A stretch of 64,000 nucleotides of DNA from positions 30,481 through 94,480 of the forward strand of contig JBQTJP010000110.1 in the NCBI GenBank assembly GCA_052386995.1, given 5' to 3'. Made by a program: the position numbers and the translations under genes. How positions within the stretch are numbered: the first letter of the stretch is position 1; each line of letters starts with the position of its first letter. The stretch is from Armatimonadota bacterium. Its GTDB lineage: Bacteria; Sysuimicrobiota; Sysuimicrobiia; Sysuimicrobiales; Humicultoraceae. Below are positions 3,216 to 53,304 of the stretch, piece after piece. Under the pieces are notes generated by a model. That model ran no database searches. It worked only from the letters and a program-made list of their open reading frames with translations, and was not told the origin of the DNA.

Positions 3216-5159
3216 CTACGACGCAGGCTTGGCGCCTGTGCGCGCACGGCTCCACTCCTCGCCCTCCGGCGGCAGCGCGGAAAGCGCGCTGTCGGATGCC
3301 AGGTGACGCAGGATCGCCCGAATGCCGGCGTCGTCCCGGCGCTGGACCAGGTGCTCGAGTTGCTGCAGCGCAAGGCGCAGGGTGACCTCATCGGGCTCGC
3401 GCTCGTCGATGACCTCAAAGATGCCCGGGTACGGCGAGGGCCGTACGGACTCCTCCGGAGTCGAGAGTTGTTCTTCCAGTTTTTCGCCCGGCCGGATGCC
3501 AGTGTAGACGATGGGGATATCGCGATCCGGTTCCAGGCCCGACAGCCTGATCACCTCGACCGCCAGGTCCGCGATGCGCACTGGCTCCCCCATGTCCAGC
3601 ACGTAGAGCCCGTAGGGCCATTCGGACATCGACGCCTGCAGGACCAGCAAGACCGCCTCAGGCGGACTCATCACGAACCGCGTCATGTCGGGATGCGTGA
3701 GCGTCACGGGCCCGCCCTGGCGAATCTGCTCCTGAATCAACGGGATCAGGCTGCCCCGGCTGCCCAGCACGTTGCCAAAGCGGACCGCAAGGAACCGGGT
3801 GCGGCCGCGGTGGCTGAGGACGTGCCCGATGAGCTCGCTCACCCGCTTGGTGGCTCCCATCACGCTGGTCGGGCGCACCGCCTTGTCCGTGGAGATGAGC
3901 ACGAAGGTCTCGACGCCGCAGCGCACGGCGCCTTCTGCGACGGTCAGGGTCCCGAGGACATTGGTCTTCACGGCCTCGTCGACATCGCGCTCCATCAACG
4001 GCACGTGTTTGTACGCCGCGGCATGAAAAACCATGCGGGGCAGCACCGAACTCATCACCCAGTCCATCTTGGAGGCATCGCGTACATCCGCTACCAGCGT
4101 CCGGAAGACCGCCTCGGGATGCAGCCGCTTGATCTCCTCCTCCAGGTCGAACAGCCCGGTCTCGTTGATGTCCAACGCAATGATCTCGCAGCGGGCCAGA
4201 CGGGCGATCTGCCGGACCAGCTCCGACCCGATGGATCCTGCGGCCCCGGTCACGAGCACCCGGCTGCCTTGCAGGCGGCGCGCGATCTCGTCGGTGGCGA
4301 TCTGCACGGTCGGCCGGCCGAGCAGGTCGGCCACCTCGACCTGCCGGAGATCGTTGAGCGTCGCATTGCCCGACAGGAGTTTTTGCACTCCCGGAAGGAT
4401 CCGCATGCGCTTCATGCCGGCCTGGCGCACGCACGCCACGATATCGCGGATCTCCTTCGACGGCGCCGAGGGAATGGCGATGATCACCTCGTCCACCCGC
4501 AGGCGTGTGACGACGTCATCGATGACCTGGCGACCGCCGTACACCCGCACGCCCTGCACGAACGCGCCCCATTTCGCCTGATCGTCGTCGATGAGGCCGA
4601 CGGGGTGCAGCGTGCCGTGCGGGTACTCTGCCATGGCCTGGACCAGGCGCGTCCCGGCGGCGCCGGCGCCCACGACCAGGAGCCTCGCCCCGGGGATATC
4701 CGACCGCCTGCCGCGCTGGCGGTCGACCTGTATCTGCCACATGCGCCGGCTGACGCGCACCAGCGCGACGCCGCAGAAGGCGAGTACGAAGTCCATGATC
4801 AGGACCGACCGTGGAAAGCCGCGGAAGGCCTCAACCGAACGCAGGAAGACCATCGTGGCCGCGATCGTTGCGGTGGACGCGCCGACGGCCTTGAATATGT
4901 TCACAAGCTCCGAAAGTCCCACCGCCCGCCACGAGATCTGATAGAGGCGAAAGGCCCAGTGCCAGACGGCCTTGATGGGAATGCTCAACAGGAGCAGCCG
5001 CGGGATGTACACCAAGTGGTTCGGGGGGATGCTCCCGTCAAATCGGATGAGGAACGCGGCAATGAGCGCTCCCGTCCACACGGCCAGGTCCGCGCCGAAA
5101 TAGAGTGCCGCGCGCAGCAGGCTGCGCCGACCGCTAAACGGAAACACTGGTCTGGACAC
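3216..5159 (-). CDS. Membrane-bound UDP-N-acetylglucosamine 4,6-dehydratase (PglF/CapD/WbpM family)
   Basis: N-terminal TM helices, two Rossmann regions (VVGAGAAG; VLVTGAAGSIGSEL) and a YKHV...K short-chain dehydrogenase catalytic motif (Tyr and Lys); 647 aa. Confidence 0.85.
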   Translation of the reverse strand: MSRPVFPFSGRRSLLRAALYFGADLAVWTGALIAAFLIRFDGSIPPNHLVYIPRLLLLSIPIKAVWHWAFRLYQISWRAVGLSELVNIFKAVGASTATIAATMVFLRSVEAFRGFPRSVLIMDFVLAFCGVALVRVSRRMWQIQVDRQRGRRSDIPGARLLVVGAGAAGTRLVQAMAEYPHGTLHPVGLIDDDQAKWGAFVQGVRVYGGRQVIDDVVTRLRVDEVIIAIPSAPSKEIRDIVACVRQAGMKRMRILPGVQKLLSGNATLNDLRQVEVADLLGRPTVQIATDEIARRLQGSRVLVTGAAGSIGSELVRQIARLARCEIIALDINETGLFDLEEEIKRLHPEAVFRTLVADVRDASKMDWVMSSVLPRMVFHAAAYKHVPLMERDVDEAVKTNVLGTLTVAEGAVRCGVETFVLISTDKAVRPTSVMGATKRVSELIGHVLSHRGRTRFLAVRFGNVLGSRGSLIPLIQEQIRQGGPVTLTHPDMTRFVMSPPEAVLLVLQASMSEWPYGLYVLDMGEPVRIADLAVEVIRLSGLEPDRDIPIVYTGIRPGEKLEEQLSTPEESVRPSPYPGIFEVIDEREPDEVTLRLALQQLEHLVQRRDDAGIRAILRHLASDSALSALPPEGEEWSRARTGAKPAS

Positions 5160-6342
5160 CTTCTTTCAGTCCCGCGGCGATGCGTTGGATATCGTCGCGG
5201 GAGAGGTCATTGTAGAACGGGAGGGCGATGGCTCGACGGCTGGCGTCTTCCGCCACGGGAAAACTGCCCTCGGGGTATCGGGCAAACGCCTTGAAGTAGG
5301 GCTGCAGATGCAGGGCCGGAAAATACGCGCGGCTGGTGATCCCCCGGCCGGCCAGATGCCGGATCAGCCCATCTCGATCGATGCCCGGCGCGACCCGCAC
5401 GACGTAGACGAACCAGCTCACGCGCGCCCAGGGCTGGGCGGCCGGCAGGGTGAGTTCGGAGATCCCGCCGAGCACCTCACCGTACCAGGCGGCGACCTGA
5501 ACGCGCCTGGCCGCCAGTGTCGGCAGCCGCTTCATCTGGGCCACGCCCAGTGCGGCGGACAGCTCGTCCATCCGGTAGTTGAACCCCAGCCGATCATGGC
5601 ACAGCCACTCCGCACCTTCGGCGCGCCCCTGGTTCCTCGCGCTGCGGGTGTAGGCCGCGATCTCATCGTCGTCGGTGACGACCATGCCACCCTCGCCGGT
5701 CGTGATCTGCTTGTTGGGATAGAAGGCGTACACTGCGGCATCAGCGAATGCCCCGGCCGCGACCCACCGCTGTCGAACACCGGAAGAATACTCCGAGCCA
5801 AACGCTTCCGCGGTGTCATCCAGGAACCGGAGGCCATAGGCATCTGCCAGCATGCGAAACTCGTCCATCTTGACCGGGTGCCCGTACACGTCTACTGGAA
5901 GGATACCCACGAGCGGGCGCCCCGTTACCCGGCCGACCAGGCGGCCGGACGCCGAGCGATACTCTCTGCGGATGAAGTCGGTCACAGTCTGCGGGTCGAG
6001 ATTCAGGGTCACCGGATCAACGTCTACAAACACGGGGTGGGCCCGTTCCATCAAGAGGATGTTGGCCGTCGCCGCGAAGGTGAACGGCGTCGTGATAACC
6101 TCCACGCCGTCGCTGAACCCGAGCGCCCGGCCGGCCAGGTGCAACGCCGCGGTGCCGCTGCTGACCGCAACGGCGTGCCGGCGGCCGGTGGACGCGGCCA
6201 CGGCGGCCTCGAATTCCTCGACCTTCGGGCCGAGGCTGAGCCAGGGCGTCTTCAGCACGCCCAGGACCTCCTGGCACTCGGCTTCCGTGATGTCGGGCCG
6301 TGACAACGGAATGGTCATGTCGCTCTCCTGTGATGGAACCAT
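5134..6342 (-). CDS. DegT/DnrJ/EryC1/StrS-family PLP sugar aminotransferase (PglE/WbpE-like)
   Basis: Fold-type I aminotransferase with typical DegT-family motifs, about 400 aa. Confidence 0.85.
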   Translation of the reverse strand: MVPSQESDMTIPLSRPDITEAECQEVLGVLKTPWLSLGPKVEEFEAAVAASTGRRHAVAVSSGTAALHLAGRALGFSDGVEVITTPFTFAATANILLMERAHPVFVDVDPVTLNLDPQTVTDFIRREYRSASGRLVGRVTGRPLVGILPVDVYGHPVKMDEFRMLADAYGLRFLDDTAEAFGSEYSSGVRQRWVAAGAFADAAVYAFYPNKQITTGEGGMVVTDDDEIAAYTRSARNQGRAEGAEWLCHDRLGFNYRMDELSAALGVAQMKRLPTLAARRVQVAAWYGEVLGGISELTLPAAQPWARVSWFVYVVRVAPGIDRDGLIRHLAGRGITSRAYFPALHLQPYFKAFARYPEGSFPVAEDASRRAIALPFYNDLSRDDIQRIAAGLKEGVQTSVSV

Positions 6343-7010
6343 TAGACAGCAGAAGCGCTGGATGATGGAGTCGTCGGGCCGCCGGGCACCAGCCGCATGA
6401 CGGCCGCGCGGCCGAGCCGCGGCGAGAAACCGGCAATGGGGGTCAGCACCAGGATGGCCAGATCTGTCGCCCAGGTGCGCCGCCGGGCGTAGGCGAGTTC
6501 GAGCGCGACTTTCTCGGGCAACACCGTATTGAAATACATGGCCTGCGGATCCTCCGACGTCCCCAGGAGGCGCTCTTCGTGGGCGAAAGCCAGCTGAGCC
6601 ACGCCCGTCATGCCGGGCCGAGCCGCGTAGACACGATGCGCCAGATCGGGCGGGATGGCGGCGACTTCGTTCGGAGGCAGGGGCCTGGGCCCAACCAGAC
6701 TCATCTCGCCCCTGACCACATTGATGAGCTGGGGCATCTCGTCCACCTTGGTGGCGCGCAGGATCCGACCCAGCGGTGTGATGCGCGAATCGCCGCGCGC
6801 CGTGACGGTTCCTCCCGCAGCCGCCCCGTCGACCATCGTCTGGAACTTGAGGATGGTGAACGGCCGCAGCCTGAGGCCGATCCGCGTCTGCCGGAAGAAG
6901 ACCCGACGGCTCACGATCCAGCTCACCGCGGCGACGAGCGCCAGCAGCGGCGCCGTCAGCGCCAGGAGCACGCCCCCCAGAATCAGATCAACCAGACGCC
7001 GCACGGAGAC
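6342..7010 (-). CDS. Undecaprenyl-phosphate sugar phosphotransferase (small PglC/WbaP-C family initiating transferase)
   Basis: A single N-terminal TM helix, then the 'bacterial sugar transferase' core (KFQTM...DEMPQLINVVRGEMSLVGPRP). The start is uncertain; the ORF extends to 7088 and overlaps the upstream GNAT. Confidence 0.8.
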   Translation of the reverse strand, partial: VSVRRLVDLILGGVLLALTAPLLALVAAVSWIVSRRVFFRQTRIGLRLRPFTILKFQTMVDGAAAGGTVTARGDSRITPLGRILRATKVDEMPQLINVVRGEMSLVGPRPLPPNEVAAIPPDLAHRVYAARPGMTGVAQLAFAHEERLLGTSEDPQAMYFNTVLPEKVALELAYARRRTWATDLAILVLTPIAGFSPRLGRAAVMRLVPGGPTTPSSSASAV

Positions 7011-7029: not shown

Positions 7030-7650
7030 TCACGCGCGCGCGGGCGACCGGTCGCCCAGCCCGATGACGTACACGGCGGCGTATTCACCGGGGTGGATCT
7101 CCGCGCGGTGCAGCAACGTAAAGCCCGAGCGTTCGTAGACCCGGCTCGCGGCGTGGTTGTCGCTGGCAGTCGTCACGCGAACCCACTCGACCCCACGATG
7201 GAGGAACTCGTTGAGGATGGCGCGCACGAGCGCGTCCGCGGCCCCGGTCCCGCGGGCCTCCGGACGCACCGCAATCGACACCAGTTCCGCCTCCGGCAAC
7301 GATCCGGCCGCGGTGTACTTCGAGGTCTCCATGAGGCGGCGCAGCCCGCCGCCCACGATCTTTCTGGCCACGGCCTTGATGGCGAGCCACTCGTTCCGCA
7401 GCACGAACGCCTGGTAGAAGCGTCGCCACTGCACGACCCCGGTGCCAAAACCCACGCATTGGCCGTCTCGTTCGGCCACAAATGCGAATCCCCATGGTGA
7501 GCCCAGCAGCGTCTGATAGAACGCGTCTACGAACCGCGGCCCCATGCCGGAGAGCAGGCCCCAGGGGATCTCGGCCATGTGTAGCGCCGTAATGACGGCG
7601 CTATCGGCCGGTGACGCTTTCCTGACTGAGATCGTCGATGGCGTGTCCAT
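7030..7650 (-). CDS. GNAT-family N-acetyltransferase. It may N-acetylate the 4-amino sugar as a PglD functional analogue.
   Basis: GNAT beta-strand / Q/RxxGxG/A-like acetyl-CoA motif (VRPEARGTGAADALV); adjacent to the dehydratase, aminotransferase and sugar-transferase trio. Confidence 0.65.
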   Translation of the reverse strand: MDTPSTISVRKASPADSAVITALHMAEIPWGLLSGMGPRFVDAFYQTLLGSPWGFAFVAERDGQCVGFGTGVVQWRRFYQAFVLRNEWLAIKAVARKIVGGGLRRLMETSKYTAAGSLPEAELVSIAVRPEARGTGAADALVRAILNEFLHRGVEWVRVTTASDNHAASRVYERSGFTLLHRAEIHPGEYAAVYVIGLGDRSPARA

Positions 7651-8785
7651 GTTTGTCCGCCAGAAGCCTGCGATAGACCTCCAGTATCTGCCTGGCAATG
7701 CGACGCTCGTCAAACGACTCCAGCGCCTTCTGCCGGTTCACCTCGCCACACCGTCTGCGCAGCGGCGCGTCATCGATCAGTCGCCGCACCGCGGCCTCCA
7801 ACGCCGGCGCGTCGCGCGGCGGTACCAGAAACCCTCCTGCACCGTCGGTCAGCACCTCGCGGCAGCCGCGGATGTCGGTCAGCACCATCGGGAGGCCCAT
7901 CGCCGCCGCCTCAACGGCCGACCGCGGCATGCCCTCCCGGTACGATGCCAGCACGAAGATGTCCATCGCGCGGTATAGATCGCGCACGTCATGGCGCAGG
8001 CCGAGGAACCGGATCACGCCACGTCCTTCCAGATCGGCGATGACATCGTGCGGGACGGCATCGGCCTTGTCGGCATCCTGGGGTCCGACGATGAGAAACC
8101 GCACGTTCGGCCTGGTCGCGCGAAGGCGTTCGGCCGTCTGGAAGACCTCCCGCAGACCCTTCTCCCACACGAGCCGGCCGACGGTCCCGACGACGATCGT
8201 CGAGTCATCAATCCCCAGTGCCGCGCGCACCGCGGCGCGATCGGCCGCGGCCGGATCGAACACCGCAAGATCGACGCCATTGCCGATGTGCAATGACCGG
8301 TCGTACCGCACAATGCGTAGAGCGCGCAGGTGGTCCAGATCCTCGCGGCTCTGGCAGAATTCGAAATCCGAGCAGGCCGCGGCCAGGCGCTCCATGGCCA
8401 GATAGGCCGTCCGCCGCAGGCCGCTCCGATCGACGCCGTACAGCCCATGCACGGTGTTGACGACGACCGGCACGCCGGCCAGACGCGCGGCTGTGCGGCC
8501 GAACACGCCGGTTTTTGGATTGTGCGTATGGACGATATCAAAGCGCTCGCGACGAAAGAGCGAGAGCAGATCGGCGAAAGCCCGCGCATCCGACGCCGGC
8601 GACCACGACCGTACCAGCGTCGGCACCACGAGGTGCCGGATGCCCCGCGCCCGCAGACCGGCGGCCCAGGGCCCGGGGCCGCTGATGCCGGTGACGTCGA
8701 ACCCCGCGGCCTGGTAGGCCGTCAGTTGATGACCCAACAGCAGGGCCAGGCTGATATCAGAGGTCGTGACGTGCGCCAGCCTCAC
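7601..8785 (-). CDS. GT4-family glycosyltransferase
   Basis: GT-B fold with the EX7E-type C-terminal motif (ASYREGMPRSAVEAAAMGLPMV). Confidence 0.8.
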   Translation of the reverse strand: MRLAHVTTSDISLALLLGHQLTAYQAAGFDVTGISGPGPWAAGLRARGIRHLVVPTLVRSWSPASDARAFADLLSLFRRERFDIVHTHNPKTGVFGRTAARLAGVPVVVNTVHGLYGVDRSGLRRTAYLAMERLAAACSDFEFCQSREDLDHLRALRIVRYDRSLHIGNGVDLAVFDPAAADRAAVRAALGIDDSTIVVGTVGRLVWEKGLREVFQTAERLRATRPNVRFLIVGPQDADKADAVPHDVIADLEGRGVIRFLGLRHDVRDLYRAMDIFVLASYREGMPRSAVEAAAMGLPMVLTDIRGCREVLTDGAGGFLVPPRDAPALEAAVRRLIDDAPLRRRCGEVNRQKALESFDERRIARQILEVYRRLLADKHGHAIDDLSQESVTGR

Positions 8786-9249
8786 CGCGAGCCCTCCGGG
8801 TGCAGCTCGACGGCAGCCGTCCCCTCACTCACGTGCCGTCCATCCAGCGTGACCGCCCACACCTCCAGGTTCACCACGCGAGCGCCGCCGGCAGAGGAGT
8901 CGCGCACGCGGCCTTCGCATCGGATCGTCTCGCCCACGTAAACCGGCGCGCCGTGGCGCACGGCCAATCGCTTCAACCAGCCGGCCGAACCGAGCCAGTC
9001 CGTGATCATCCGTGTCAGCAGCGCCGTGCGATGATGGCCGCTCTGAATGCAGTCGCGTAGCCCACGCATCTGTGCAAACGCGCGGTCGTAATGGAGCGCA
9101 AACCAGTTCTCCTGATAGGCGGCCCACCGCACGAAGTCGGCAAGTGTCAGCGGTCCCATCTCAACCGCCGGCAGTAGCGCGCCGGCCGCTATATCGAGTG
9201 GTGAAGACCCGATCGCGGCGTGTCCCTTCGCGGCGCCGGGGTCGGTCAT
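8782..9249 (-). CDS. MaoC-like (R)-specific enoyl-CoA hydratase, hotdog fold (C-terminal catalytic half-type)
   Basis: Hotdog-fold MaoC_dehydratas signature. It has 4-nt overlaps with the neighbouring GT4 and CoA-transferase genes. Confidence 0.7.
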   Translation of the reverse strand: MTDPGAAKGHAAIGSSPLDIAAGALLPAVEMGPLTLADFVRWAAYQENWFALHYDRAFAQMRGLRDCIQSGHHRTALLTRMITDWLGSAGWLKRLAVRHGAPVYVGETIRCEGRVRDSSAGGARVVNLEVWAVTLDGRHVSEGTAAVELHPEGSR

Positions 9250-10385
9250 GCCCCGGTCCGAGCCTGCTGGCGCGGGCCGGTGGCGATCACACCGGCGGCT
9301 TCGAGACGTCCGATCTCGTCCCGCGAGAATCCGGCCTCACGCAGGACCTCGGCGGTGTGTTGCGCCGGGCGCGGCGCGGGCGATGGGCGCCGCATCCACG
9401 GCACACGCAACACGGGTATCTCATCGTCGCCAATCCGCTGGAAGAACTCTCGGGACCGCAGCTGTGGATCGGTCAGCAGGTCATCGACACTGTGGACGGG
9501 GGCGATCGGAATGCCCCGTGCCTGAGCCAGCTCGGAGAGCTCGGCCTTGCTGAACCTCTGGGTCCATGCCCCGACGATCTCGAACACATCTTCCTGGCGC
9601 GCCAGGCGGGACTGTTCCTCCGTCAGCGCCTGGTCGCGCAGCCGCTCGTCACCGACGAGGTCGACCAGGGCGGCCCACATGCGCCGCTCGTTGGCGGAGA
9701 TCACCACATAGCCATCCCGACACGGCAGCGCGCCTGCCATGGCGATATGAGCGTGGCGGCTGCCGCGGCGCGTGACCACGCGTCCCGACAGCGCGGCCTC
9801 GTAGACCCCTTGCTGCATCACGGTCAGCAGGGCCTCGTGGCCGCTGACGTGCACCAGTCGCCCATCGCCGGTCTGCCGTGCCAGGCGCGCCCCCAGCACG
9901 CACGCCAGCGCCCCGTAGACCGCCGTAATCGCGTCGGCGAGCCCGCCTCCGACGAGCATCGGCGTCTGTCCCGGCTGCCCGGTAATCGACATGAGACCGC
10001 TGAGGGCATACCGGACGATGCCGGCAGTCCGGGCGATCTCACCACCCGCGGCCGGTGCGAAAGGTCGTAACGCGACCCACACGAGCCTCGGGTTGGCCGC
10101 GCGGCAGCGCGCGTAGAGCGACGGCGTGTCGTCGAACCGTGGTGCGATGCCGTCCATGACGACATCCGCGGCCGTGCACAGGCGCTCCAGAATCTCGCTC
10201 CCCCCGGCCCGCCGCAGGTCAACGACCACGCTGCGCGTGCCGGCGTTGAAGAACCGGTATGAAGGGTCGCGCGCGGCTCCGTCGGCGGCATCCAGGCGGA
10301 CCACATCGGCGCCGAGATCCGCCAGCAGTCTCCCCGCATAGACGGCGGACTCATCGGTCAGGTCCAGCACGCGCAGTACGCTCAT
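9246..10385 (-). CDS. Family III CoA-transferase (CaiB/BaiF family)
   Basis: N-terminal LRVLDLT...GADVV Rossmann motif of CoA_transf_3, about 380 aa. Confidence 0.8.
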   Translation of the reverse strand: MSVLRVLDLTDESAVYAGRLLADLGADVVRLDAADGAARDPSYRFFNAGTRSVVVDLRRAGGSEILERLCTAADVVMDGIAPRFDDTPSLYARCRAANPRLVWVALRPFAPAAGGEIARTAGIVRYALSGLMSITGQPGQTPMLVGGGLADAITAVYGALACVLGARLARQTGDGRLVHVSGHEALLTVMQQGVYEAALSGRVVTRRGSRHAHIAMAGALPCRDGYVVISANERRMWAALVDLVGDERLRDQALTEEQSRLARQEDVFEIVGAWTQRFSKAELSELAQARGIPIAPVHSVDDLLTDPQLRSREFFQRIGDDEIPVLRVPWMRRPSPAPRPAQHTAEVLREAGFSRDEIGRLEAAGVIATGPRQQARTGA

Positions 10386-10954
10386 GCGTGTGGCGGTGAC
10401 CCCATGAGAGAACGCGGACTCCCGCCGGCCACATCCGGCGCGACGATCCTGATCGTCGTCTGCCGGACCACGGCCAGCGGCTGTCCTGCCTGATCGGTAT
10501 AGCGGCGCTCCTCGGTGATGTACACCGCGGGGCCATCACGTCGTTCTTTCACGGCAATGTCAACGATCCTGAACCGCACCGTCACCCAATCGCCGATGCG
10601 AGGTGGGCGCATCCACTCGATCTCTGTGGCGACGTTGAGCCGGAGACGTTCACCCGGGACCTTGATCAGCGCGACCGGTCCGCCGACCGACGCTGCCCCG
10701 CCCTCGCGATCATCGTCGTGTGCGTTCATCCCCGGCGCGGGTCGCAGCACGTCCAGGATCATGGCCGGCGGCACCGGCGCCCCGGTCCGATCGTATGCCG
10801 CCTGCACGCCACCGGCAGGCGCCACCGGACTCTGCCCTCCAACGGCGTTGAGATATCGCCGCACGTCGCTCCACTCGATCGGCCCCGGGGCCCTGATGGG
10901 TCCCCACTCGTGCCCGATCCACTGTCGCAGAGCGTCTGCGGGGTCGGTCGTCAT
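10382..10954 (-). CDS. MaoC-like hotdog protein (N-terminal/FAS1-like dehydratase half; partner of 8782-9249)
   Basis: Hotdog-like protein of about 190 aa that pairs with the downstream MaoC gene. Split MaoC heterodimers of this kind occur in ChsH1/ChsH2-type hydratases. Confidence 0.55.
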   Translation of the reverse strand: MTTDPADALRQWIGHEWGPIRAPGPIEWSDVRRYLNAVGGQSPVAPAGGVQAAYDRTGAPVPPAMILDVLRPAPGMNAHDDDREGGAASVGGPVALIKVPGERLRLNVATEIEWMRPPRIGDWVTVRFRIVDIAVKERRDGPAVYITEERRYTDQAGQPLAVVRQTTIRIVAPDVAGGSPRSLMGSPPHA

Positions 10955-10957
10955 CTG

Positions 10958-12175
10958 TCAGACCAGCACACCCTCGGCGTGAAGCCGGGTAATCTCGGCG
11001 TCTTCCAGAGCGAGCACCTCGCGAAGCACCGCGTCGGTGTGCTCACCCAGGCGTGGACCGGCTCGATCTGGCCAGACCGTGTCCGCATCGAGGTGAATGG
11101 GGTTGGGCAGCGCCGGCATCGCGCCGATAACGGGATGGCGCATCGTGCGGACCGATGGGGCGAAAACCGGCAGATCGGCCAGCGCCTCGACATTCGTGCG
11201 CACCGCCGCGGCGGGCGCGCCCGCGGCCTGCAGCTGAGCCTCGACATCGCGCGACGCCCGCTGCCTCGTCCAGCCCTCGAGCCGGGAATCGATCTCCTCG
11301 AGCGCCTGCAGCCGGCCCTCGGCCGTCGCGTAGCGCGGATTCCGCAACGTTTCATCGCCGACCGCGCCGACCAGCGCCTCCCACTCGCCGCCGCTGCCGA
11401 TGCTGATCACGCACCAGGCATCCTCGCCGCGACACCGGTAGCAGCCCTGCGGGACGCGGTCCGCTGCGCGGTTTCCCGGGCGCGCGCCGGGCGCGTGGCG
11501 TGTGCCGTTCGATGGCCCATTCAGCATCAGATGTCCGAGCGGAAGGGCGTTCGCCTCGTACTGACTGACATCGATCCAGCATCCCTGGCCCGTGCGGTCG
11601 CGCCGCTCGAGCGCCGACACGAGCACGAGCGCCGCGTGCAGTCCGGCCATGAAGTCAGCCCACGAGTTCGAGACGCCTGTGGGCGGCTCGCCGGGGCTGC
11701 CGGTTGTCAGCATGAGCCCCGAGAGCGCCTGGATCACGGCGTTGAAGCTCGCCCATCCGCTCCGCGGACCACCGTAGCCGAGCCCTGACATGCTCACGTA
11801 GATCAGGCGCGGGTTGATCGCCAGCAGCTGGTCGTGCCCTAACCCCAGCCGATCCATGACGCCTGCACTGAAGTTCTCGGTCACGGCGTCGCAACGCGCC
11901 GCCAGCGCCCGCGCGACATCCGCGCCGTGCGGGTGCTTCAAGTTGATGGCCACCGACCGCTTCTGACGGTTCAAGCCGGCAAAAAGCGCGCTGCCCTCCG
12001 GGTCACGGGGACCGTCGGGCCGAAACGGCCCCAATCGACGCCCGGCCTCGACGGCGGTCGCGCTCTCGACCTTGATGACGTCGGCGCCGAACTCTGCGAG
12101 CAGGCCCGTCGCGAATGGCCCGGTCACGACGTGACCAAAGTCCAGGATGCGAACGCCCTGCAACGGCGTGGTCAT
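10958..12175 (-). CDS. Family III CoA-transferase (CaiB/BaiF family), second copy
   Basis: The start is MTTPLQGVRILDFGHVVTGPF (ATGA overlap with the next gene). The long N-terminal extension shown in the ORF track is spurious. Confidence 0.8.
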   Translation of the reverse strand: MTTPLQGVRILDFGHVVTGPFATGLLAEFGADVIKVESATAVEAGRRLGPFRPDGPRDPEGSALFAGLNRQKRSVAINLKHPHGADVARALAARCDAVTENFSAGVMDRLGLGHDQLLAINPRLIYVSMSGLGYGGPRSGWASFNAVIQALSGLMLTTGSPGEPPTGVSNSWADFMAGLHAALVLVSALERRDRTGQGCWIDVSQYEANALPLGHLMLNGPSNGTRHAPGARPGNRAADRVPQGCYRCRGEDAWCVISIGSGGEWEALVGAVGDETLRNPRYATAEGRLQALEEIDSRLEGWTRQRASRDVEAQLQAAGAPAAAVRTNVEALADLPVFAPSVRTMRHPVIGAMPALPNPIHLDADTVWPDRAGPRLGEHTDAVLREVLALEDAEITRLHAEGVLV

Positions 12176-12648
12176 CGCCTGCGCGCTCCCGCGGTCGTGG
12201 CTTTCTTCCCCGCGCGCGGATCGGGGGCGACTGCGCTGGGTACCGGTTCGAAGCTCGGCAGTGTGTACCGCCTCCCAATCGGGCGGAAGACGACGCGCAC
12301 GGGCATCCCGATGAGCACCGCATCGGTCCGGCAGTTCACGACCGTGCTGACCATCATCGGGCCTTCGTGCAGCTCGATGGCGGCATACACATACGGCGTG
12401 GGAAACGCCGGGTCGTGCTGGGCCCGCTGCACCGTGAAGGCGAATACCTTTCCCCGCCCGCTGGCCTGTGTCCATTTCAGGTTCTCAAGGTACGGAGCGT
12501 TGGGGTGCTCGCGGCAGCCCGCCAGCGGCCAGCGCCAGGCTCCGCACACGTCGCAACATAGCAGCAGAAACTCGTTCCGCCGCAGGCCCTCCCAAAATGG
12601 CCGCATTTCCTCGGTGGGATTCGGGTCCGGCCCTTTCCAGTCGCTCAT
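12172..12648 (-). CDS. DUF35 Zn-ribbon/OB-fold protein (thiolase/aldolase partner subunit)
   Basis: CCDVCG...C Zn-ribbon followed by an OB-fold. The start is MSDWKGP (ATGA overlap with the thiolase stop). Confidence 0.65.
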   Translation of the reverse strand: MSDWKGPDPNPTEEMRPFWEGLRRNEFLLLCCDVCGAWRWPLAGCREHPNAPYLENLKWTQASGRGKVFAFTVQRAQHDPAFPTPYVYAAIELHEGPMMVSTVVNCRTDAVLIGMPVRVVFRPIGRRYTLPSFEPVPSAVAPDPRAGKKATTAGARRR

Positions 12649-13853
12649 GCCGCCCGCCGGTGCGGTTGCGTCGTCAACACAATCGTGGAGTGGATCGAGC
12701 ACATCTGCCCGGACAGCACTTCGGCGCCGTGTCCGGAGACCAGCGCGACTTCGGCGTCGGCCACCTGTCGCGTACCGCCCTCGCCCCGCAACTGAATGAC
12801 CGCCTCGGCAAAGCCGGTCAGGTTGCCCAGGTGGTGGGAGGACAAGAGTCCACCGCCGGTGTTCACGGGGATGTCGCCGCCGGGCGCGGTCCGCATCTCC
12901 GCTGCGAAGGCGCCGCCCTCGCTCTTTCCGCACCAGCCATAGTCTTCCAGCTGAAGAATGACCTCGCCCGTGAAGCAGTCGTACAACTGGGCGAGATCCA
13001 CGTCGGCCGTGGTAATGCCGGCCTGCCGGAATGCGGTCTCGCGCGCGCCGTGCACCGCGAGCGTCGTGTAATTCGTCTTGTCCCACCACAACTCGGCCAT
13101 CTGCTCGCCAAATCCGATGCCGCCCATATACACCGGCGGCCGGCGCAGGTCGCGCGCGCGCTCCTCCGTGGTGACGATGAACGCGGTGCCACCGTCACTC
13201 TGGAGGCAAATGTCGAACAGGCGGTACGGCCAGACGATCACCGGCGATCGCTGGTGATCCTCCAGCGTCAACGGCCGGTCATGCAGGTAGGCGCGTGGAT
13301 TCAGGTTCGCCCACCGCCGCGTGGCGACGGCCACTGCACCGAGCTGCTCGCTGGTGGTGCCGAATTCATGCATGTGGCGGCTGGCCAGGAGGCCGTGATA
13401 GGTGGGCGCGTTCGCGCCGAAGAGCGCGGCCCATGAGTTCTGCTTGGCGGCATAGGACTGGCCGCGCTTTCCCGACCCCTGCTTTGCCGCCTGACTGCGA
13501 CTCCAGTCGTCGCGCGCGCCCGAGCACAGCACGTAGTCGGCGATGCCATGATCGAGCAGCCCGGTCGCCGCGAGCAACGCGTGGCCCGCGTACTCGCCGC
13601 CCCGACCCACGTTCTCCAGGTACAGGTTGACCGGCAGGTTCAGCACCCGGGCGAACGAGTCGTGATGCCGAGGACGCACACCGCCTCCCGCATCGCTCAG
13701 CATCTGAACCGCCGCGCCGATGTCGTGCGCCGCCAGACCCGCATCTTCCATGGCGAGTCGCGCGGCCTCCACTTCGAGCATCAGGACCGACCGGCCGGGC
13801 AGATGCCCGACCTCGGTGACGCCGAGTCCGACAATCGCGTAGCGTCCTCTCAT
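12645..13853 (-). CDS. SCP-x / lipid-transfer-protein-type thiolase-like enzyme (thiolase or retro-aldolase, Ltp2-like)
   Basis: Thiolase fold. DUF35-associated subfamily. Confidence 0.75.
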   Translation of the reverse strand: MRGRYAIVGLGVTEVGHLPGRSVLMLEVEAARLAMEDAGLAAHDIGAAVQMLSDAGGGVRPRHHDSFARVLNLPVNLYLENVGRGGEYAGHALLAATGLLDHGIADYVLCSGARDDWSRSQAAKQGSGKRGQSYAAKQNSWAALFGANAPTYHGLLASRHMHEFGTTSEQLGAVAVATRRWANLNPRAYLHDRPLTLEDHQRSPVIVWPYRLFDICLQSDGGTAFIVTTEERARDLRRPPVYMGGIGFGEQMAELWWDKTNYTTLAVHGARETAFRQAGITTADVDLAQLYDCFTGEVILQLEDYGWCGKSEGGAFAAEMRTAPGGDIPVNTGGGLLSSHHLGNLTGFAEAVIQLRGEGGTRQVADAEVALVSGHGAEVLSGQMCSIHSTIVLTTQPHRRAA

Positions 13854-13874
13854 GATGACCCAGCCGCTGATGAC

Positions 13875-14783
13875 CTAGCCGCGGATGAAGGACTCGGGTG
13901 GCCTGGGGCCCCAGAGGTTGACCGCGCCGACACGTCCCCTGACGGGATCCCAGACCCCGGCCTCACGCATACCCTCGCCGTCGAAACGCACCGACTCTGC
14001 GAGAAGCTCCCACCGGATATTCCACGGATCCACGAAATACACGAACAGGCTGTTGCCGGGCCCGTGCCGCCCGGGGCCGTACTCGACCTGCACGCCAAGG
14101 GTGCCGAAGTGGTCGAGCATCCGGAGCATGTCGCTCCAGGACGCGATCTCGAGCGCGACGTGATGCAGACCCGGGGTCGAGGACCGTACCAGGGCGACGG
14201 TGGTATGCTCGTCTCCACAGCGCAGCCAGTAGAACTCGTCGGGGATGCGATCCGACAGGCGGAGGTCGAGGTGATCCTCCAGCCACCGTGCGGACGCGCC
14301 CACGTGTGGGCTGCGGAGATTGATGTGCGACAACCTCAGCAGATTGGCCGGTGAAGCTTCCGCCGCGGGCCGCGCAACAGGCGCGTCGGGAATCACCAGC
14401 TCCAGATAGAGTCCGTCGTCGTCCTGGAGCCGGACGGCCGGTCCGTGGACGGACTCCATGGCCGCGGGCCCCTCGACCGTCAGGCCGCGGCTACGCAACA
14501 TCGCAGCGGCAACATCCAGGGCGCCTTCATCGCGCACCGCCAGGGCATAGTGCGCCAAACCGAAAGGCTCGCCGGGGTACAGCACGAGTTCGTGGTGCGG
14601 CACCAGTTGCGCGCCGGCCGGTAGCGTGCTCATGAGCACCGCGCCCGTCGACGCGTCCCGACCGGTGATGCCGAGTCCCAGCACGCGGCGATAGTATTCG
14701 GCCGCGGCGTCCGGATCCGACACCCGGAACGTGACGTGATCCAGGTGCGTCACGGGGAGACGCTGGCCGGTGCGACCCGTCAT
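13875..14783 (-). CDS. Two-domain VOC (glyoxalase/extradiol dioxygenase-like) protein
   Basis: Two VOC modules and a C23O-like C-terminal motif (GPGRHGPGNSLFVYFVDPWNIRWEL). The start MTGRTGQ overlaps the CE4 stop (ATGA). Confidence 0.65.
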   Translation of the reverse strand: MTGRTGQRLPVTHLDHVTFRVSDPDAAAEYYRRVLGLGITGRDASTGAVLMSTLPAGAQLVPHHELVLYPGEPFGLAHYALAVRDEGALDVAAAMLRSRGLTVEGPAAMESVHGPAVRLQDDDGLYLELVIPDAPVARPAAEASPANLLRLSHINLRSPHVGASARWLEDHLDLRLSDRIPDEFYWLRCGDEHTTVALVRSSTPGLHHVALEIASWSDMLRMLDHFGTLGVQVEYGPGRHGPGNSLFVYFVDPWNIRWELLAESVRFDGEGMREAGVWDPVRGRVGAVNLWGPRPPESFIRG

Positions 14784-15664
14784 CGAGATCCTGGCTCCAG
14801 CCGGGCGGCGGGAGTCGCGGACGACCCGTCGGCCGTTCGAGTTCCGAGCTGATGCATCCGGGCGCGGAATAGTCGGAACCCATCGGTACGCAGCACGGGA
14901 TAGCGCCACAGCCGGTGAGGGCGGAGGGCGGCATAGGGATTCTTGCCAGGCCCTCCGAGCGCCGCGGTCGCGTAGCGTGGGGCCACCATCGGCTCAACCA
15001 CCGGCGACCAGCGACCCCAGGGGTATGCGAAGTGCCTCGGCGTCACCCCAAGGCGCCGCTGGATCATACGATCGCACTCGTCGAGTTCGGCAGCTGCCTG
15101 ATCCGGCGTCGTCTGCGACAGATCCACGTGGGTGTGCGTGTGGCTGCCGATCGCCACGAGTCCCGACCGCGCCATCTCGCCCGCCTGCTCCCAGGTGAGG
15201 GGCAACGGCCGGCGTTCCGGCGCGAGATTGCCGAAAGCACCGAAGTCGAACGGCCGCCGGGTCTCGACGTACATCGCGGGCAGATAGACGGTCGCGGGCA
15301 GTCCGTACCGACGCAGTACGGGATACGCCACGTCATACGTCTCGCCGTAGCCGTCGTCGAACGTAATGGCCACGATATCCGATGCGGCCTGACGGCCCGG
15401 AGACGCGCAGACCTCGGCCACATCGTCCAGCGAGACAACCCGGCAATGACGATGAAGACAGCGCATCTGCGCTTCGAAGGCGCGCTCCGTGACATCCACG
15501 TCGCTGCGCGTGTTGCCGCCGACGCGGTGGTACAGCAGCACCACGACGCCCGGCTCCGGGTGCGGCCGGACGGCCTGCAGCGGCAGCGCCAGCCACCGCC
15601 CGAGGCTGCGCGCCGTGCGTCCTGCCCCCATGATCCAGTCGGGCAACTCCATAGCGGCCGTCAA
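14780..15664 (-). CDS. Polysaccharide deacetylase (CE4 / NodB homology)
   Basis: TFDDGY and HTHTH motifs. Confidence 0.8.
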   Translation of the reverse strand: MTAAMELPDWIMGAGRTARSLGRWLALPLQAVRPHPEPGVVVLLYHRVGGNTRSDVDVTERAFEAQMRCLHRHCRVVSLDDVAEVCASPGRQAASDIVAITFDDGYGETYDVAYPVLRRYGLPATVYLPAMYVETRRPFDFGAFGNLAPERRPLPLTWEQAGEMARSGLVAIGSHTHTHVDLSQTTPDQAAAELDECDRMIQRRLGVTPRHFAYPWGRWSPVVEPMVAPRYATAALGGPGKNPYAALRPHRLWRYPVLRTDGFRLFRARMHQLGTRTADGSSATPAARLEPGSR

Positions 15665-20983: not shown

Positions 20984-22567
20984 TCAGGGTCCGTCTCGGC
21001 CGATCAGGGCGCCTGCACTGAGCCGCGCGCCTTCGCTCCCATCCATCTCGGCAAGCCCGCCTTCTGCACGCCCTCCGGCCCGCCCAAAGTTTCCGCGAAG
21101 CATATCGATGAATGTGAACACCACCTGGCGCTCGGTCAAGAGGATGACCGCTCCGTAGACAACAATCCCGACGGCGACCTCGAGGATCAGGGTCACGAGC
21201 GCGGCGGTGCCCGCCGCCTTCAGCGCCCAATCCACCAGCACCACGCTCGCGATCATGACGGCGCATCCCACGAGGCTCGATCGCACCGCCTCCCACACGT
21301 CGTGGGCCGTTATCCCCAGCACCGACGCCACAAAGCGATGCTGGACCGGCACCAGAATCGCGGTAGCGGCGAGATATCCGGCGGCCACGCCGACGATGCC
21401 CCACCGCAGCCCGATGGCAAACGCCGGGAGGTACAGCAGCAGCGAAAGAAACGTCCATCGCAGCTGCAGATCAGCGCGACCGGCCGCGAGGAGTCCGCTG
21501 AACCACAAGGTCGTCACCAGCTGAAACGTCCCCGCAAACGCCAGGACGCGTATGACCGGGGCCGATGGCAGCCATTTTGCGCCGAAGACCACCTCGACCG
21601 CCGGCGAGGCAACCAGCGCCAGCCCGACCATGACCGGCAGGGCTATGATCGCGACATGTTGCGTCGCAATGAGAAACCCCCGCCTGAGCCGAGCCGTGTC
21701 ATGCTGGACCTTGGAAAAGGCCGACAACATCACCTGATGGAGCGGCGCGGCAACGTCCTGGAGCGGGATCCGGAACGCCGTATACGCGAGCGCATAGTAC
21801 CCCAGAGCAATTGGGCCAAGGAACCGGCCGATCAGCAGGTTGTCGAGATTTCGGATGAAGTAGCTAAAGAGCCGCGAGAGCGTGAGCGGCGTGCTGAACG
21901 ACCAGAGATCCTTGAACTTCGGCCATGAGAATCGCAGGGTCGGCTTCCACCGCGTGGCGAGATAGTAGGCAACCGGGGCCGTGGCGGAGCCGGCAAGCGC
22001 TTTGCCTACCAGACTCCAGACACCCGTGCCGGCCAGGGCCATCCCGAGCCCGGTCAGGCCGCCGACAACCACCGCGGCCGCGTCGCACAACGCCAGCGCA
22101 CGGTACTCCATGCGGCGCGCAGCGAGCGCGAAGTGCGTCACCCATGTGGCGGAGATCACGATGCGGAAGGAGAGGATGACGAGCACCGTCTCCGCGAGCG
22201 GATCCGCCAGAAACGCGCCGGCCAGAGGGGCAGCGGCGAGCGCGATTGCGAACAGAAACGCCCCGACGACCAGGCTCGTCCAGAAGGCTGTCGAGAGGTA
22301 TTCATCGTCCACATCACGCCGCTGGATGATCGCCGACCCACCGCCGGCTTCAAGGAAGAGCTCGAGGAATCCCACAACCACCCACCCGATGGCGATAAGA
22401 CCATAGTCACGAGGAAGGAGGAGTCGAACCAGAATGACTGTGAACACCTGGTCCAACCCTCGCGCCGCGACACGCTGGCCTCCCAGCCAGAACATGCCTT
22501 GCATCGCGGCCGCGCGAATGCGCGGCACCGGATGGCCGTGGGGCCGCACGGTCTCGACCATCGTCAA
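20984..22567 (-). CDS. wzx: Wzx-type flippase (MOP/PST family), paralog of 1102-2622
   Basis: Multi-TM protein about 45% identical by eye to the first Wzx (e.g. LWSFSTPLTLSRLFSYFIRNLDNLLIGRFLG against LWSFGGPLFLSRLFGYAVRNTDNLLIGRYLG). Confidence 0.8.
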   Translation of the reverse strand: MTMVETVRPHGHPVPRIRAAAMQGMFWLGGQRVAARGLDQVFTVILVRLLLPRDYGLIAIGWVVVGFLELFLEAGGGSAIIQRRDVDDEYLSTAFWTSLVVGAFLFAIALAAAPLAGAFLADPLAETVLVILSFRIVISATWVTHFALAARRMEYRALALCDAAAVVVGGLTGLGMALAGTGVWSLVGKALAGSATAPVAYYLATRWKPTLRFSWPKFKDLWSFSTPLTLSRLFSYFIRNLDNLLIGRFLGPIALGYYALAYTAFRIPLQDVAAPLHQVMLSAFSKVQHDTARLRRGFLIATQHVAIIALPVMVGLALVASPAVEVVFGAKWLPSAPVIRVLAFAGTFQLVTTLWFSGLLAAGRADLQLRWTFLSLLLYLPAFAIGLRWGIVGVAAGYLAATAILVPVQHRFVASVLGITAHDVWEAVRSSLVGCAVMIASVVLVDWALKAAGTAALVTLILEVAVGIVVYGAVILLTERQVVFTFIDMLRGNFGRAGGRAEGGLAEMDGSEGARLSAGALIGRDGP

Positions 22568-27964: not shown

Positions 27965-28029
27965 GGATCACCTCCGATTTATCCAGAAGCTCTCCGTCGG
28001 TCGGGGAACGCTGCAGGACCGTCCTTCTC

Positions 28030-28135
28030 TTCGGCAGCCCGGCTGTCTTGGAAGTATCGTCCAAGACCCGTAGCTTTGCGTCCCCGAATCACTTCGGGTT
28101 TGCCCTTGTCGGAGAGTTCCGGTGAATGGGATCTC
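28030..28135 (-). ncRNA. Candidate c-di-GMP-I (GEMM) riboswitch in the 5' leader of the G8/beta-helix gene
   Basis: The minus-strand RNA reads ...GGGCAAACCCGAAGUGAUUCGGGGACGCAAAGCUACGGGUCUUGGACGAUACUUCCAAGAC... It carries the conserved GGCAAAC element, a P2 hairpin capped by a GNRA tetraloop (CCCGAA-GUGA-UUCGGG), the invariant GGACGCAAAGC element and a P3 hairpin (GUCUUGG...CCAAGAC). An SD (GGAGG) and a GTG start follow about 60 nt downstream. Confidence 0.5.
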
Positions 28136-33030: not shown

Positions 33031-33077
33031 CGCGCGAATGCCTCCTTGAAAATCCCGGGAGCCCGGGCGCAGGCAGG

Positions 33078-41405: not shown

Positions 41406-41611
41406 GGCCAGGGTACCTCGAGGGCCGCGGCGACCACCGCGGTGACGAGAAGAAGAACGATCTTGGCCCTGATCGCCCGCCGGTCATCGGCGAGCAACGC
41501 GCAGATTTGTATCCCCATTTCTGCGGGTGACCGTGTGGCCATCGGACCCAGCCGGCCGGCTGCGCAGCGCCGATAAGCGGTGTGGACGGTGAACGGTTCG
41601 GTTCGGATCAT
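41402..41611 (-). CDS. Small hypothetical protein with a C-terminal hydrophobic helix
   Basis: 69-aa ORF whose start overlaps the lexA stop (4 nt) and whose stop overlaps the RNase H-like start. It could be non-coding. Confidence 0.25.
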   Translation of the reverse strand: MIRTEPFTVHTAYRRCAAGRLGPMATRSPAEMGIQICALLADDRRAIRAKIVLLLVTAVVAAALEVPWP

Positions 41612-42310: not shown

Positions 42311-42401
42311 CTATAAGGTGCCTGTACGACGGTACGCGTGATCTCGGGCCCGGACGCCTGTTTTCGCGCCCGCACGGGGCCGCGCGGCGTGTCTTGGGGG
42401 T

Positions 42402-46604: not shown

Positions 46605-46607
46605 GCG

Positions 46608-47729: not shown

Positions 47730-47740
47730 GTGTCCCGCAC

Positions 47741-48379: not shown

Positions 48380-48391
48380 CTGGGCGTCTTC

Positions 48392-53291: not shown

Positions 53292-53304
53292 TACCCGACC
53301 TCCT

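Follow-up and report, generated by a model that had tools for sequence, protein, structure and literature searches.

The window analysed here is a stretch of 64,000 nucleotides from an Armatimonadota bacterium (GenBank assembly GCA_052386995.1, contig JBQTJP010000110.1). It carries an exopolysaccharide (EPS) locus, and the genes that we examined between 1 and 38.4 kb all lie on the minus strand. Within this locus, at 8782-14783 on the minus strand, is a cassette of seven genes that encode a VOC protein, a thiolase-like protein, a DUF35 protein, two CoA-transferases and two hot-dog (MaoC-type) proteins. We determined the gene content, conservation, linkage and active-site signatures of this cassette, and our data support the view that it is an integral, conserved part of glycan loci.

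Gene content of the cassette

The cassette is transcribed in the order VOC, thiolase-like, DUF35, CoA-transferase 2 (CoAT2), MaoC_N, CoA-transferase 1 (CoAT1) and MaoC_C. Pfam families were verified for 7/7 proteins with E values of 5e-9 to 2e-97, far beyond chance, which bears out the genes, families and coordinates given in a preliminary description of this DNA made from the sequence alone. Stop and start codons overlap as ATGA at five junctions, namely that of VOC with the upstream CE4 polysaccharide deacetylase gene and the thiolase/DUF35, DUF35/CoAT2, MaoC_N/CoAT1 and CoAT1/MaoC_C junctions. MaoC_C is joined to the downstream GT4 glycosyltransferase gene (GT4a) by a GTGA overlap. Short gaps are found at two junctions only (VOC/thiolase, 21 nt; CoAT2/MaoC_N, 3 nt). 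The chaining by ATGA to glycan genes on both sides that had been described therefore holds, with GTGA at the GT4 gene and the two gaps as the departures from it. Likewise, the block had been said to lack an acyl-CoA dehydrogenase and a 3-hydroxyacyl-CoA dehydrogenase, and we found neither enzyme in the window locus nor in the related loci L162-L168.

The cassette recurs in glycan loci of relatives

A search with MaoC_N returned 41 clusters at 51-100 % identity, and nine cassette contexts could be read, the window and eight others from metagenomes. We found that the cassette or a part of it lies inside a glycan locus in 9/9 of these contexts, with the same gene order wherever it is visible. All seven genes, in the same order and at 47-87 % identity, are present in L162, L163/L164, L165, L166 and L167. 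In L162, L163, L165, L166 and L167 the cassette is followed by GT4, GNAT, PglC, DegT and PglF genes, and homologues of this GT4-GNAT-PglC-PglE-PglF series follow MaoC_C in 5/6 contexts that extend past it. On the other side, CE4 lies directly upstream of VOC also in L002, L162 and L163, and the 338-aa GNAT is present in L002, L162, L163 and L166.

The remaining copies are partial or rearranged. L002 holds GNAT338-CE4-VOC-thiolase-DUF35 at 60-82 % identity, and L168 holds the first five cassette genes up to the end of its contig. On the JGI contig of P0037, also partial, a carbamoyltransferase gene and a GDSL gene lie between MaoC_N and CoAT1, and a glycosyltransferase gene follows MaoC_C. L165 has an isochorismatase-family hydrolase gene upstream of VOC that overlaps the VOC start, and genes for an SsuA-type binding protein, an ABC ATPase and a permease are interleaved around its GT4 and GNAT genes. 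L169, a second locus of the metagenome-assembled genome that contains L162, was read only as far as the VOC start (contig JASDBE010000148.1, down to position 56322); here Rieske dioxygenase, short-chain dehydrogenase (SDR) and VOC genes lie on the other side of the PglCEF core. When genome and metagenome collections were searched with the thiolase-like protein, almost only paralogues at <=44 % identity in CoA-transferase/DUF35 catabolic settings were retrieved, L002 being the sole orthologue. A tblastn search of plasmids gave VOC matches of <=33 % and thiolase-like matches of at most about 40 % and no cassette-like context.

Two related loci, L170 and L171, have GT4a, 182-aa GNAT, PglC, DegT and PglF proteins 55-62 % identical to those of the window and no cassette. 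At the cassette position, directly upstream of the GT4a orthologue, both carry a CE4 gene that overlaps a Formyl_trans_N gene (L170 7206-8857, L171 7148-8784). This arrangement resembles the ArnA/ArnD logic of transient N-formylation and identifies the position between CE4 and GT4a as a variable slot for tailoring genes. The cassette is an accessory module, since these related loci do without it. An ATP-grasp-like open reading frame (ORF) follows the GNAT gene in L170 and L171.

The cassette has the composition of its flanks (GC 0.67-0.70, GC at third codon positions [GC3] 0.76-0.84), and promoter-like sites (1 against 1.1 expected) and terminator-like sites (5 against 4.2 expected) are not in excess. 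Cassette proteins and flanking glycan proteins have diverged to a like extent in the five orthologous loci compared, with identities in L162, for instance, of 70-87 % for the cassette and 74-87 % for the flanks. The aldolase candidate (the thiolase-like protein) is more conserved than any flank protein in 4/5 loci. Linkage to glycan genes also survives the rearrangements seen on the P0037 contig and in L165 and L169. Recent insertion was rejected on composition, co-divergence and synteny. The preliminary description had suggested that the cassette is integral to the glycan pathway, and its recurrence, co-divergence and composition agree with this. The neighbourhood survey suggested there does place the same block in glycan loci of relatives, and of the signs of insertion that it named, a separate promoter or terminators and deviant codon usage, none was seen: there is no excess of sites and GC3 equals that of the flanks.

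The thiolase-like protein has the signature of an aldolase

The closest solved relatives of the thiolase-like protein are PDB 4u4e (4e-67) and TcLtp2 (6ok1, 2e-57), and BbsB is matched at 4e-23. At the position of the thiolase nucleophile we found Gly85/86, in a segment V-G-R-G85-G86 that aligns with the Gly stretch of TcLtp2 6ok1. Gly at this position is invariant in nine cassette copies and is found in 133/169 related loci. The protein also has a Y291-D-C293-F motif, again invariant in nine cassette copies, whose Tyr, the catalytic base in this family, aligns with TcLtp2 Tyr294; in Sal and SLP enzymes the Cys of the motif serves as acid. In CtSal, which has Gly at the nucleophile position, catalysis is by the Tyr and Cys of Y-D-C-Y, and CtSal binds a DUF35 protein with a Cys3His zinc finger; TbSLP carries YDCF (Rolfe et al. 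2025, PMC12329534). The window motif is the YDCF of TbSLP, equivalent to the YDCY of CtSal. The DUF35 protein of the cassette has C32-x2-C35...C45-x2-H48 (Cys3His), which is kept in orthologues, and its gene overlaps its neighbours, including the aldolase gene, by ATGA on both sides.

Judged by these residues, the thiolase-like protein carries the Sal/SLP aldolase signature, that is, Gly at the nucleophile position, YDCF and a Cys3His DUF35 neighbour. It is a candidate for retro-aldol cleavage of a beta-hydroxyacyl-CoA. It is also the most conserved protein of the cassette (76-87 % identity by tblastn). A function as true thiolase was rejected because the nucleophilic Cys is missing and Gly stands in its place.

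The VOC protein keeps an extradiol dioxygenase site

The best NCBIfam models for the VOC protein are HpaD (7e-33) and catechol 2,3-dioxygenase (4e-32). Both score far below their cut-offs, which places the window VOC in a separate subfamily. In the PDB it matches 3b59 and homoprotocatechuate 2,3-dioxygenases. His153, His207/208 and Glu259, the predicted metal triad, and Tyr249 align with HPCD/MndD and are invariant in six orthologues; the aligned triad residues of the homoprotocatechuate dioxygenases are His155, His214 and Glu267. Tyr249 aligns with the Tyr of an F-Y-L-Y segment, and the phmmer alignment shows the conserved His193 offset from His200 by one residue. The 2-His-1-carboxylate site of the C-terminal domain is intact. 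A distant homologue of the VOC protein sits in a 4-hydroxyphenylacetate/hpaD cluster.

The VOC gene had been described as lying next to the other six. It is more than a neighbour: VOC is a constant member of the cassette, and in two relatives (L167 and L169) it lies directly downstream of genes for a Rieske alpha/beta pair, a Cys-free ORF of 76-81 aa and an SDR of the cis-diol dehydrogenase type. In L167 the Rieske beta subunit scores above the NCBIfam cut-off for the HcaF subfamily and the SDR above that for 3-phenylpropionate-dihydrodiol dehydrogenase (HcaB-type). The alpha subunit resembles HcaE (2e-102, below cut-off) and, among PDB entries, NidA. Because an Hca-like Rieske dioxygenase and a cis-diol dehydrogenase adjoin VOC in two relatives, an aromatic catechol is a likely substrate for the cassette; an aromatic substrate was not among the proposals of the preliminary description.

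The small ORF between the Rieske beta and cis-diol dehydrogenase genes (L167 5086-5331; L169 14019-14249) is conserved and has no Pfam match. A ferredoxin function was rejected for it, as it is without Cys.

Two CoA-transferases and two hot-dog subunits

The two CoA-transferases are paralogous subunits, each nearer to a different subunit of benzylsuccinate CoA-transferase. The best PDB match of CoAT2 is 9fn0_B (BbsF, 3e-55), with BbsE at 1e-25, and CoAT1 matches 4ed9 (4e-32), BbsE (9fn0_A, 1e-30) and BbsF (7e-17). A candidate catalytic Asp174 of CoAT2 (SWADF), the residue that would form the acyl-aspartyl anhydride, aligns with an Asp in the corresponding segment of 9fn0_B and is invariant in five orthologues, while Asp151 of CoAT1 (GLADA) is found in 4/5 orthologues and is Asn in L166. 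Both proteins also match succinyl-CoA:mesaconate and succinate-glutarate transferase models. These similarities fit a BbsEF-like heteromer for an aryl-substituted or other dicarboxylate.

The CoA-transferase genes are interleaved with the hot-dog genes. L165 5220-6656 encodes a natural fusion of 478 aa in which a BbsE-like CoA-transferase is joined to a MaoC_C hot-dog domain. As the two are fused in L165, CoAT1 and MaoC_C may be suggested to work together physically.

By sequence MaoC_N had no match in the PDB, and its profile weakly matched the itaconyl-CoA hydratase PaIch (E 0.006). We found that the AlphaFold2 (AF2) model of MaoC_N (predicted local distance difference test [pLDDT] score 78) best resembles, by Foldseek, the MaoC domain of ChsH2 (4wnb_A, 6e-8), HadA and PaIch. 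The model of MaoC_C (pLDDT 84) best resembles ChsH1 (1e-10, TM 0.87), PhaJ and HadB. A profile match to HadB was obtained at 2e-9. The models are consistent with two distinct hot-dog subunits, one of catalytic and one of partner type. One MaoC_N homologue bears the JGI name 3-methylfumaryl-CoA hydratase. Most MaoC_N orthologues have a near-complete hydratase-2 motif with Trp for His (Y-x-N-A-T-G-D-x-N-P-L-W), and the motif is degenerate in the window (V-G-G-Q-S-P-V-A) and L162 (V-G-E-R-N-S-L-W) copies.

MaoC_C has a motif Y-Q-E47-N48-W...H53 that is invariant in 25 clusters. It departs from the Asp-x4-His of the hydratase-2 motif, with Asn48-x4-His53 instead, and Asn48 aligns with the Asp of ChsH1. 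The two hot-dog halves of the split MaoC hydratase that had been described are confirmed, and the place of the catalytic Asp is taken by the invariant Asn. Hydratase activity of the pair is plausible but not assured, because the catalytic Asp is replaced by Asn48 although His53 is kept. Arg74 is invariant in MaoC_C, and it is speculation on our part that it binds a substrate carboxylate.

The surrounding glycan locus and its regulation

Table 1. Position of the cassette genes and of other features along the window, with the match on which each name rests.
Feature	Position	Strand	Match or remark
Wzx-like flippase	1102-2700	minus	
PglF-like 4,6-dehydratase	3216-5159	minus	Polysacc_synt_2 8e-100
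DegT aminotransferase	5134-6318	minus	Pfam DegT 2.5e-104
PglC-like Bac_transf	6342-7004	minus	Pfam Bac_transf 2e-48
182-aa GNAT, candidate N-acyltransferase of 4-amino sugar (PglD analogue)	7030-7578	minus	Acetyltransf_1 5e-15
GT4 glycosyltransferase (GT4a)	7601-8785	minus	Glycos_transf_1 6e-34
MaoC_C, ChsH1/HadB-like putative catalytic hot-dog subunit, 155 aa	8782-9249	minus	MaoC_dehydratas 8e-12
CoAT1, BbsE-like divergent family III CoA-transferase, 379 aa	9246-10385	minus	CoA_transf_3 1.5e-64
MaoC_N, ChsH2/HadA-like hot-dog partner subunit, 190 aa	10382-10954	minus	FAS1_DH_region (MaoC_N type) 5.2e-9
CoAT2, BbsF-like family III CoA-transferase, 405 aa	10958-12175	minus	CoA_transf_3 1.6e-97
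Stand-alone DUF35 protein (zinc ribbon + OB fold), 158 aa	12172-12648	minus	OB_ChsH2_C 5.6e-18; zf-ChsH2 weak
Cys-less thiolase-fold protein, Sal/SLP/Ltp2-type aldolase candidate, 402 aa	12645-13853	minus	Thiolase_C_1 6.4e-39
Two-domain VOC protein, type-I extradiol dioxygenase-like, 302 aa	13875-14783	minus	Pfam Glyoxalase x2, 2.4e-23
CE4 polysaccharide deacetylase	14780-15664	minus	Polysacc_deac_1 2.1e-26
Two-lobed GNAT (Acetyltransf_9), 338 aa	15661-16677	minus	Pfam 1.3e-12
Wzx-like flippase	20984-22567	minus	
GT4 protein	22948-24255		no match in exact-sequence look-up
G8/beta-helix protein, 827 aa	25481-27964	minus	GTG start
c-di-GMP-I-GGC riboswitch	28029-28113	minus	RF03167, 73.2 bits (gathering score 59)
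NusG paralogue	34520-35038	minus	
Wzc-like pair, first member	35072-35728	minus	P-loop ATPase match
Wzc-like pair, second member	35762-37360	minus	no Pfam match; named by position only
Wza-like exporter	37404-38405	minus	
lexA	41608-42234		
Chromosomal origin region	42400-62000		
Glycine-cleavage genes	43346-47729		
parB	49518-50420		
parA	50392-51270		
jag	51928-52599		
recF	58233-59351		
gyrB	59837-61810		

Downstream of the cassette, the GT4, 182-aa GNAT, PglC-like, DegT and PglF-like proteins would make up a bacillosamine-type core for a 4-amino-4,6-dideoxy-N-acetylhexosamine (HexNAc). The 182-aa GNAT gave 59 clusters at >=50 % identity, after which identity falls sharply to about 40 %. 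The locus also holds a UDP-glucose dehydrogenase, methyltransferases, a second CE4/GNAT pair, six GT4 genes, two Wzx-like flippases and the G8/beta-helix protein. Because there are two flippase genes, it may encode two glycans or two assembly stages. A NusG paralogue, possibly an operon-specific antiterminator, is encoded near the 5' end of the locus, where only export and chain-length genes lie farther out.

A cyclic di-GMP (c-di-GMP) riboswitch precedes the GTG start of the G8/beta-helix gene by about 65 nt. The cassette belongs to the minus-strand gene string headed by this riboswitch, and the EPS locus may therefore be under c-di-GMP control. Between riboswitch and cassette, some of the upstream genes are separated by gaps of 134, 380 and 55 nt. 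The cassette is probably co-transcribed and translationally coupled with glycan genes, and the operon may extend back to the riboswitch.

Besides the second Wzc-like gene, large ORFs with no Pfam match are found at 31705-33210 in the window, at 4404-5390 in L168 and at 1525-2844, 3778-5502 and 12241-13869 in L166. A 439-aa ORF adjoins the Acetyltransf_9 GNAT gene both in L166 and in L171. Farther along the window is the chromosomal origin region, with a low-GC stretch (0.52-0.55) and a cumulative GC-skew minimum at about 56-58 kb; glycine-cleavage genes and lexA lie between the origin and the EPS locus.

Discussion

The substituents usually found on surface glycans are acetyl, formyl, methyl, pyruvyl or simple hydroxyacyl groups. 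We propose, with a probability of roughly 0.4, that the seven genes are a conserved accessory unit within a Wzx-dependent EPS locus of Armatimonadota and make a glycan-tailoring precursor, so that an aromatic precursor would end as a decoration of the glycan. A carboxylated aromatic (catecholic, phenylpropanoid-like) compound would be converted to a small functionalised acyl-CoA or oxo-acid. The BbsF/BbsE-like family III CoA-transferase pair would load the acid onto CoA, and the ChsH2/ChsH1-like hot-dog heterodimer would add or remove water at an enoyl- or beta-hydroxyacyl-CoA. The Cys-less aldolase (YDCF, Sal/SLP type), held by the Cys3His DUF35 protein, would make or break a C-alpha/C-beta bond that links an aldehyde or ketone with an acyl-CoA, and the VOC extradiol dioxygenase would open the catechol ring. 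In some relatives the catechol would be supplied in cis by the Hca-like Rieske dioxygenase and cis-diol dehydrogenase, and in L165 an ABC importer is encoded within the locus. The acceptor of the product would be an amino sugar, namely the 4-amino-4,6-dideoxy-HexNAc formed by PglF and DegT or a residue that CE4 has freed. What we infer in this scheme is the kind of substrate, the sequence and direction of the reactions and that the product reaches the glycan.

A glycan-tailoring role is favoured because the linkage to glycan genes has outlived several independent rearrangements, because tailoring genes are interleaved within the cassette and because the cassette occupies the slot that elsewhere holds a formyltransferase. 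A more specific version of this proposal we think rather unlikely: a bacillosamine-type EPS decorated with a substituent from aromatic ring fission, remodelled as a CoA thioester by steroid-type hydratase and aldolase. Here a phenylpropanoid-like acid would be taken up or made, dioxygenated, opened by VOC, remodelled and installed on the amino sugar, with the aldolase possibly working in the synthetic direction and a ring-cleavage semialdehyde as the acceptor.

Several observations speak against a tailoring role. Every enzyme family in the block is typical of catabolism, and a retro-aldol reaction would be expected to free only acetyl- or propionyl-CoA as thioester. The hydratase motif is without its catalytic Asp (Asn48 is invariant, with Glu47 before it). 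The window itself has no Rieske dioxygenase. Among outgroups, the aldolase/DUF35 pairs nearest to that of the cassette (L082, L003 and L004, 53-59 %) are found in import or catabolism settings, their neighbours being ABC importers, an acyl-CoA ligase, an enolase-superfamily protein, an amidohydrolase and a LysR regulator. We found no cassette-specific transferase in the loci examined: GT4a orthologues occur in L169-L171 (56-59 %) and orthologues of the 182-aa GNAT in loci without the cassette (51-59 %; 57-59 % in L170 and L171). A GNAT of about 350 aa in L171 shares its Pfam family (Acetyltransf_9) and approximate size with the 338-aa protein. That GT4a glycosylates the cassette product was rejected on the occurrence of its orthologues without the cassette. 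The preliminary description had offered the cassette as a possible source of donor for the adjacent two-lobed GNAT, and this idea is not backed by co-variation, a GNAT of like family and size being present in cassette-less L171.

A catabolic module is a serious rival, given that the cassette consists of catabolic families throughout and has no co-varying transferase, although we hold it to be somewhat unlikely. In this case a co-regulated catabolic or detoxification module would degrade an environmental aromatic acid (for example cinnamate, phenylpropionate or an arylacetate), which would be activated with CoA, hydrated or dioxygenated, relieved of its side chain by a retro-aldol reaction and opened by meta-cleavage. 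It would lie in the EPS operon for co-expression only, and nothing would enter the glycan. The parts match the logic of the ipf pathway (PMC9195938), L165 has an importer that depends on a substrate-binding protein, the closest aldolase/DUF35 outgroups and the distant VOC homologue of the hpaD cluster stand in catabolic surroundings, and neither the acyltransferases nor GT4a co-vary with the cassette. However, no meta-cleavage-product hydrolase or dehydrogenase and no lower pathway was found in any locus examined, and the cassette contexts (9/9) and the partial set of L169 are glycan loci, never a catabolic island. The glycan-tailoring genes inside the cassette of the P0037 contig, the stop/start overlaps with CE4 and GT4 and the linkage kept through the independent rearrangements of L165 and L169 also argue against it.

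Alternatively, the cassette could make an aliphatic acyl donor. A C4-C6 unsaturated dicarboxylate of the itaconate, mesaconate or fumarate type would be activated and hydrated to a hydroxyacyl-CoA such as citramalyl- or malyl-CoA, or acetyl-CoA would be added to a 2-oxo acid in an aldol reaction. A GNAT would then transfer the product to an amino sugar, as the hydratase AntA and the acyltransferase AntD provide for anthrose, and VOC would be an isomerase or epimerase. The matches of both CoA-transferases to succinyl-CoA:mesaconate and succinate-glutarate transferase models are in line with this, as are the PaIch similarity of MaoC_N, its homologue named 3-methylfumaryl-CoA hydratase and the invariant Arg74 of MaoC_C, if the speculative carboxylate-binding role is granted. 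The itaconate cluster of P. aeruginosa also contains a VOC-family gene. We nevertheless regard this explanation as quite improbable, because the dioxygenase site is intact and has Rieske partners: the extradiol triad and the Tyr are complete in VOC, which is similar to HpaD and catechol 2,3-dioxygenases, and in two relatives the Rieske dioxygenase and cis-diol dehydrogenase genes lie directly upstream of it. The similarity to PaIch is, moreover, marginal. Finally, it is hardly credible that the cassette was inserted recently by horizontal transfer or is a decaying passenger without a function in the locus: it is absent from some related loci and hence accessory, but its composition equals that of the flanks, its proteins co-diverge with flank proteins over five loci (the aldolase topping all of them in four), its reading frames are all intact with invariant active-site residues, relatives show synteny, and mobile-element genes or repeats were not noticed beside it.

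To return to the glycan-tailoring proposal, an extradiol dioxygenase together with a benzylsuccinate-type CoA-transferase pair and a steroid-type hydratase/aldolase is so far undescribed in a polysaccharide operon. If the product ends on the glycan, the decoration chemistry would be new, ring-cleavage and thiolase-fold aldolase enzymes would gain a new role in biosynthesis, and the barely studied cell surface of the Armatimonadota would become easier to approach. Should ring fission be the source of the substituent, the cassette would encode a glycan-tailoring pathway of a new class, one that puts meta-cleavage chemistry to biosynthetic use. If the cassette is catabolic, an aromatic-acid pathway has, unusually, been tied firmly to EPS expression. 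Either way, it offers testable new specificities for Sal/SLP-type aldolases, whose known substrates are so far steroid only, and a natural Asp-to-Asn variant of the hydratase-2 motif.

Comparison with known systems

A literature search found no description of such a module in a glycan locus, in agreement with the preliminary description, which knew of no such combination in EPS or O-antigen loci. That description had likened the parts to ChsH1-ChsH2-Ltp2 and BbsEF-BbsAB, a likeness confirmed by the BbsF/BbsE and ChsH2/ChsH1 matches and the Cys-less YDCF aldolase. The cassette as a whole fits none of the systems below, given its Asp-less hydratase motif and its lack of dehydrogenases, steroid genes and a co-varying acyltransferase.

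In the anthrose operon antABCD of Bacillus anthracis (PMC10050317), and with variably N-acylated bacillosamine-type sugars, an acyl-CoA-modifying enzyme likewise stands beside an aminotransferase and an N-acyltransferase for a 4-amino-4,6-dideoxy sugar. However, a single crotonase-type hydratase in the anthrose operon stands against seven genes in the window, with predicted ring-cleavage, CoA-transfer and aldolase functions, and the acyltransferases of the window locus do not co-vary with these genes.

The BbsEF/BbsAB enzymes of anaerobic toluene degradation (beta-oxidation of benzylsuccinate) share with the cassette the paralogous CoA-transferase subunits, with reciprocal similarity to BbsF and BbsE, and a thiolase-fold protein with a DUF35 partner. 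In contrast to that system, the cassette loci have no BbsG (acyl-CoA dehydrogenase), BbsH or BbsCD, a thiolase function is out of the question for the thiolase-fold protein with its Gly at the nucleophile position, the transferase genes are interleaved with hot-dog genes, and an O2-dependent dioxygenase is included.

Of the steroid complexes ChsH1-ChsH2-Ltp2 (actinobacterial) and Shy-Sal (proteobacterial), the first provides the best matches for the hot-dog models, ChsH2 and ChsH1. The complexes share with the cassette the thiolase-fold aldolase without nucleophilic Cys (YDCY in CtSal, YDCF in TbSLP and in the cassette), and the zinc-ribbon/OB DUF35 partner with Cys3His ligands is like CtShy-DUF35 (PMC12329534). 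Unlike in these complexes, the DUF35 protein of the cassette is encoded by a separate gene and not fused to the hydratase, the hydratase Asp is Asn, and CoA would come from transferases; in addition, the position of Tyr344 in TcLtp2 is His in the cassette aldolase. There are no steroid genes or acyl-CoA dehydrogenases near the cassette, and its context is glycan biosynthesis.

In the ipf pathway an aromatic acid is activated with CoA, a two-subunit Rieske dioxygenase dioxygenates the CoA thioester, and a thiolase-like/DUF35 retro-aldolase frees acyl-CoA and a catechol, which then undergoes extradiol cleavage (PMC9195938). The ibuprofen/arylalkanoate genes ipfABDEF of Sphingomonadaceae, with the extradiol dioxygenase, are a close parallel once the Rieske and diol-dehydrogenase extension is included: L167 and L169 both have the Rieske dioxygenase and VOC, and L167 has the aldolase/DUF35 pair and CoA-transferases as well. 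The cassette differs from ipf in having a CoA-transferase pair in place of the ligase, and its loci have an extra hot-dog pair and a cis-diol dehydrogenase. The window and the majority of cassette loci lack Rieske genes. The setting differs too, the cassette lying in an EPS operon and ipf on a catabolic plasmid.

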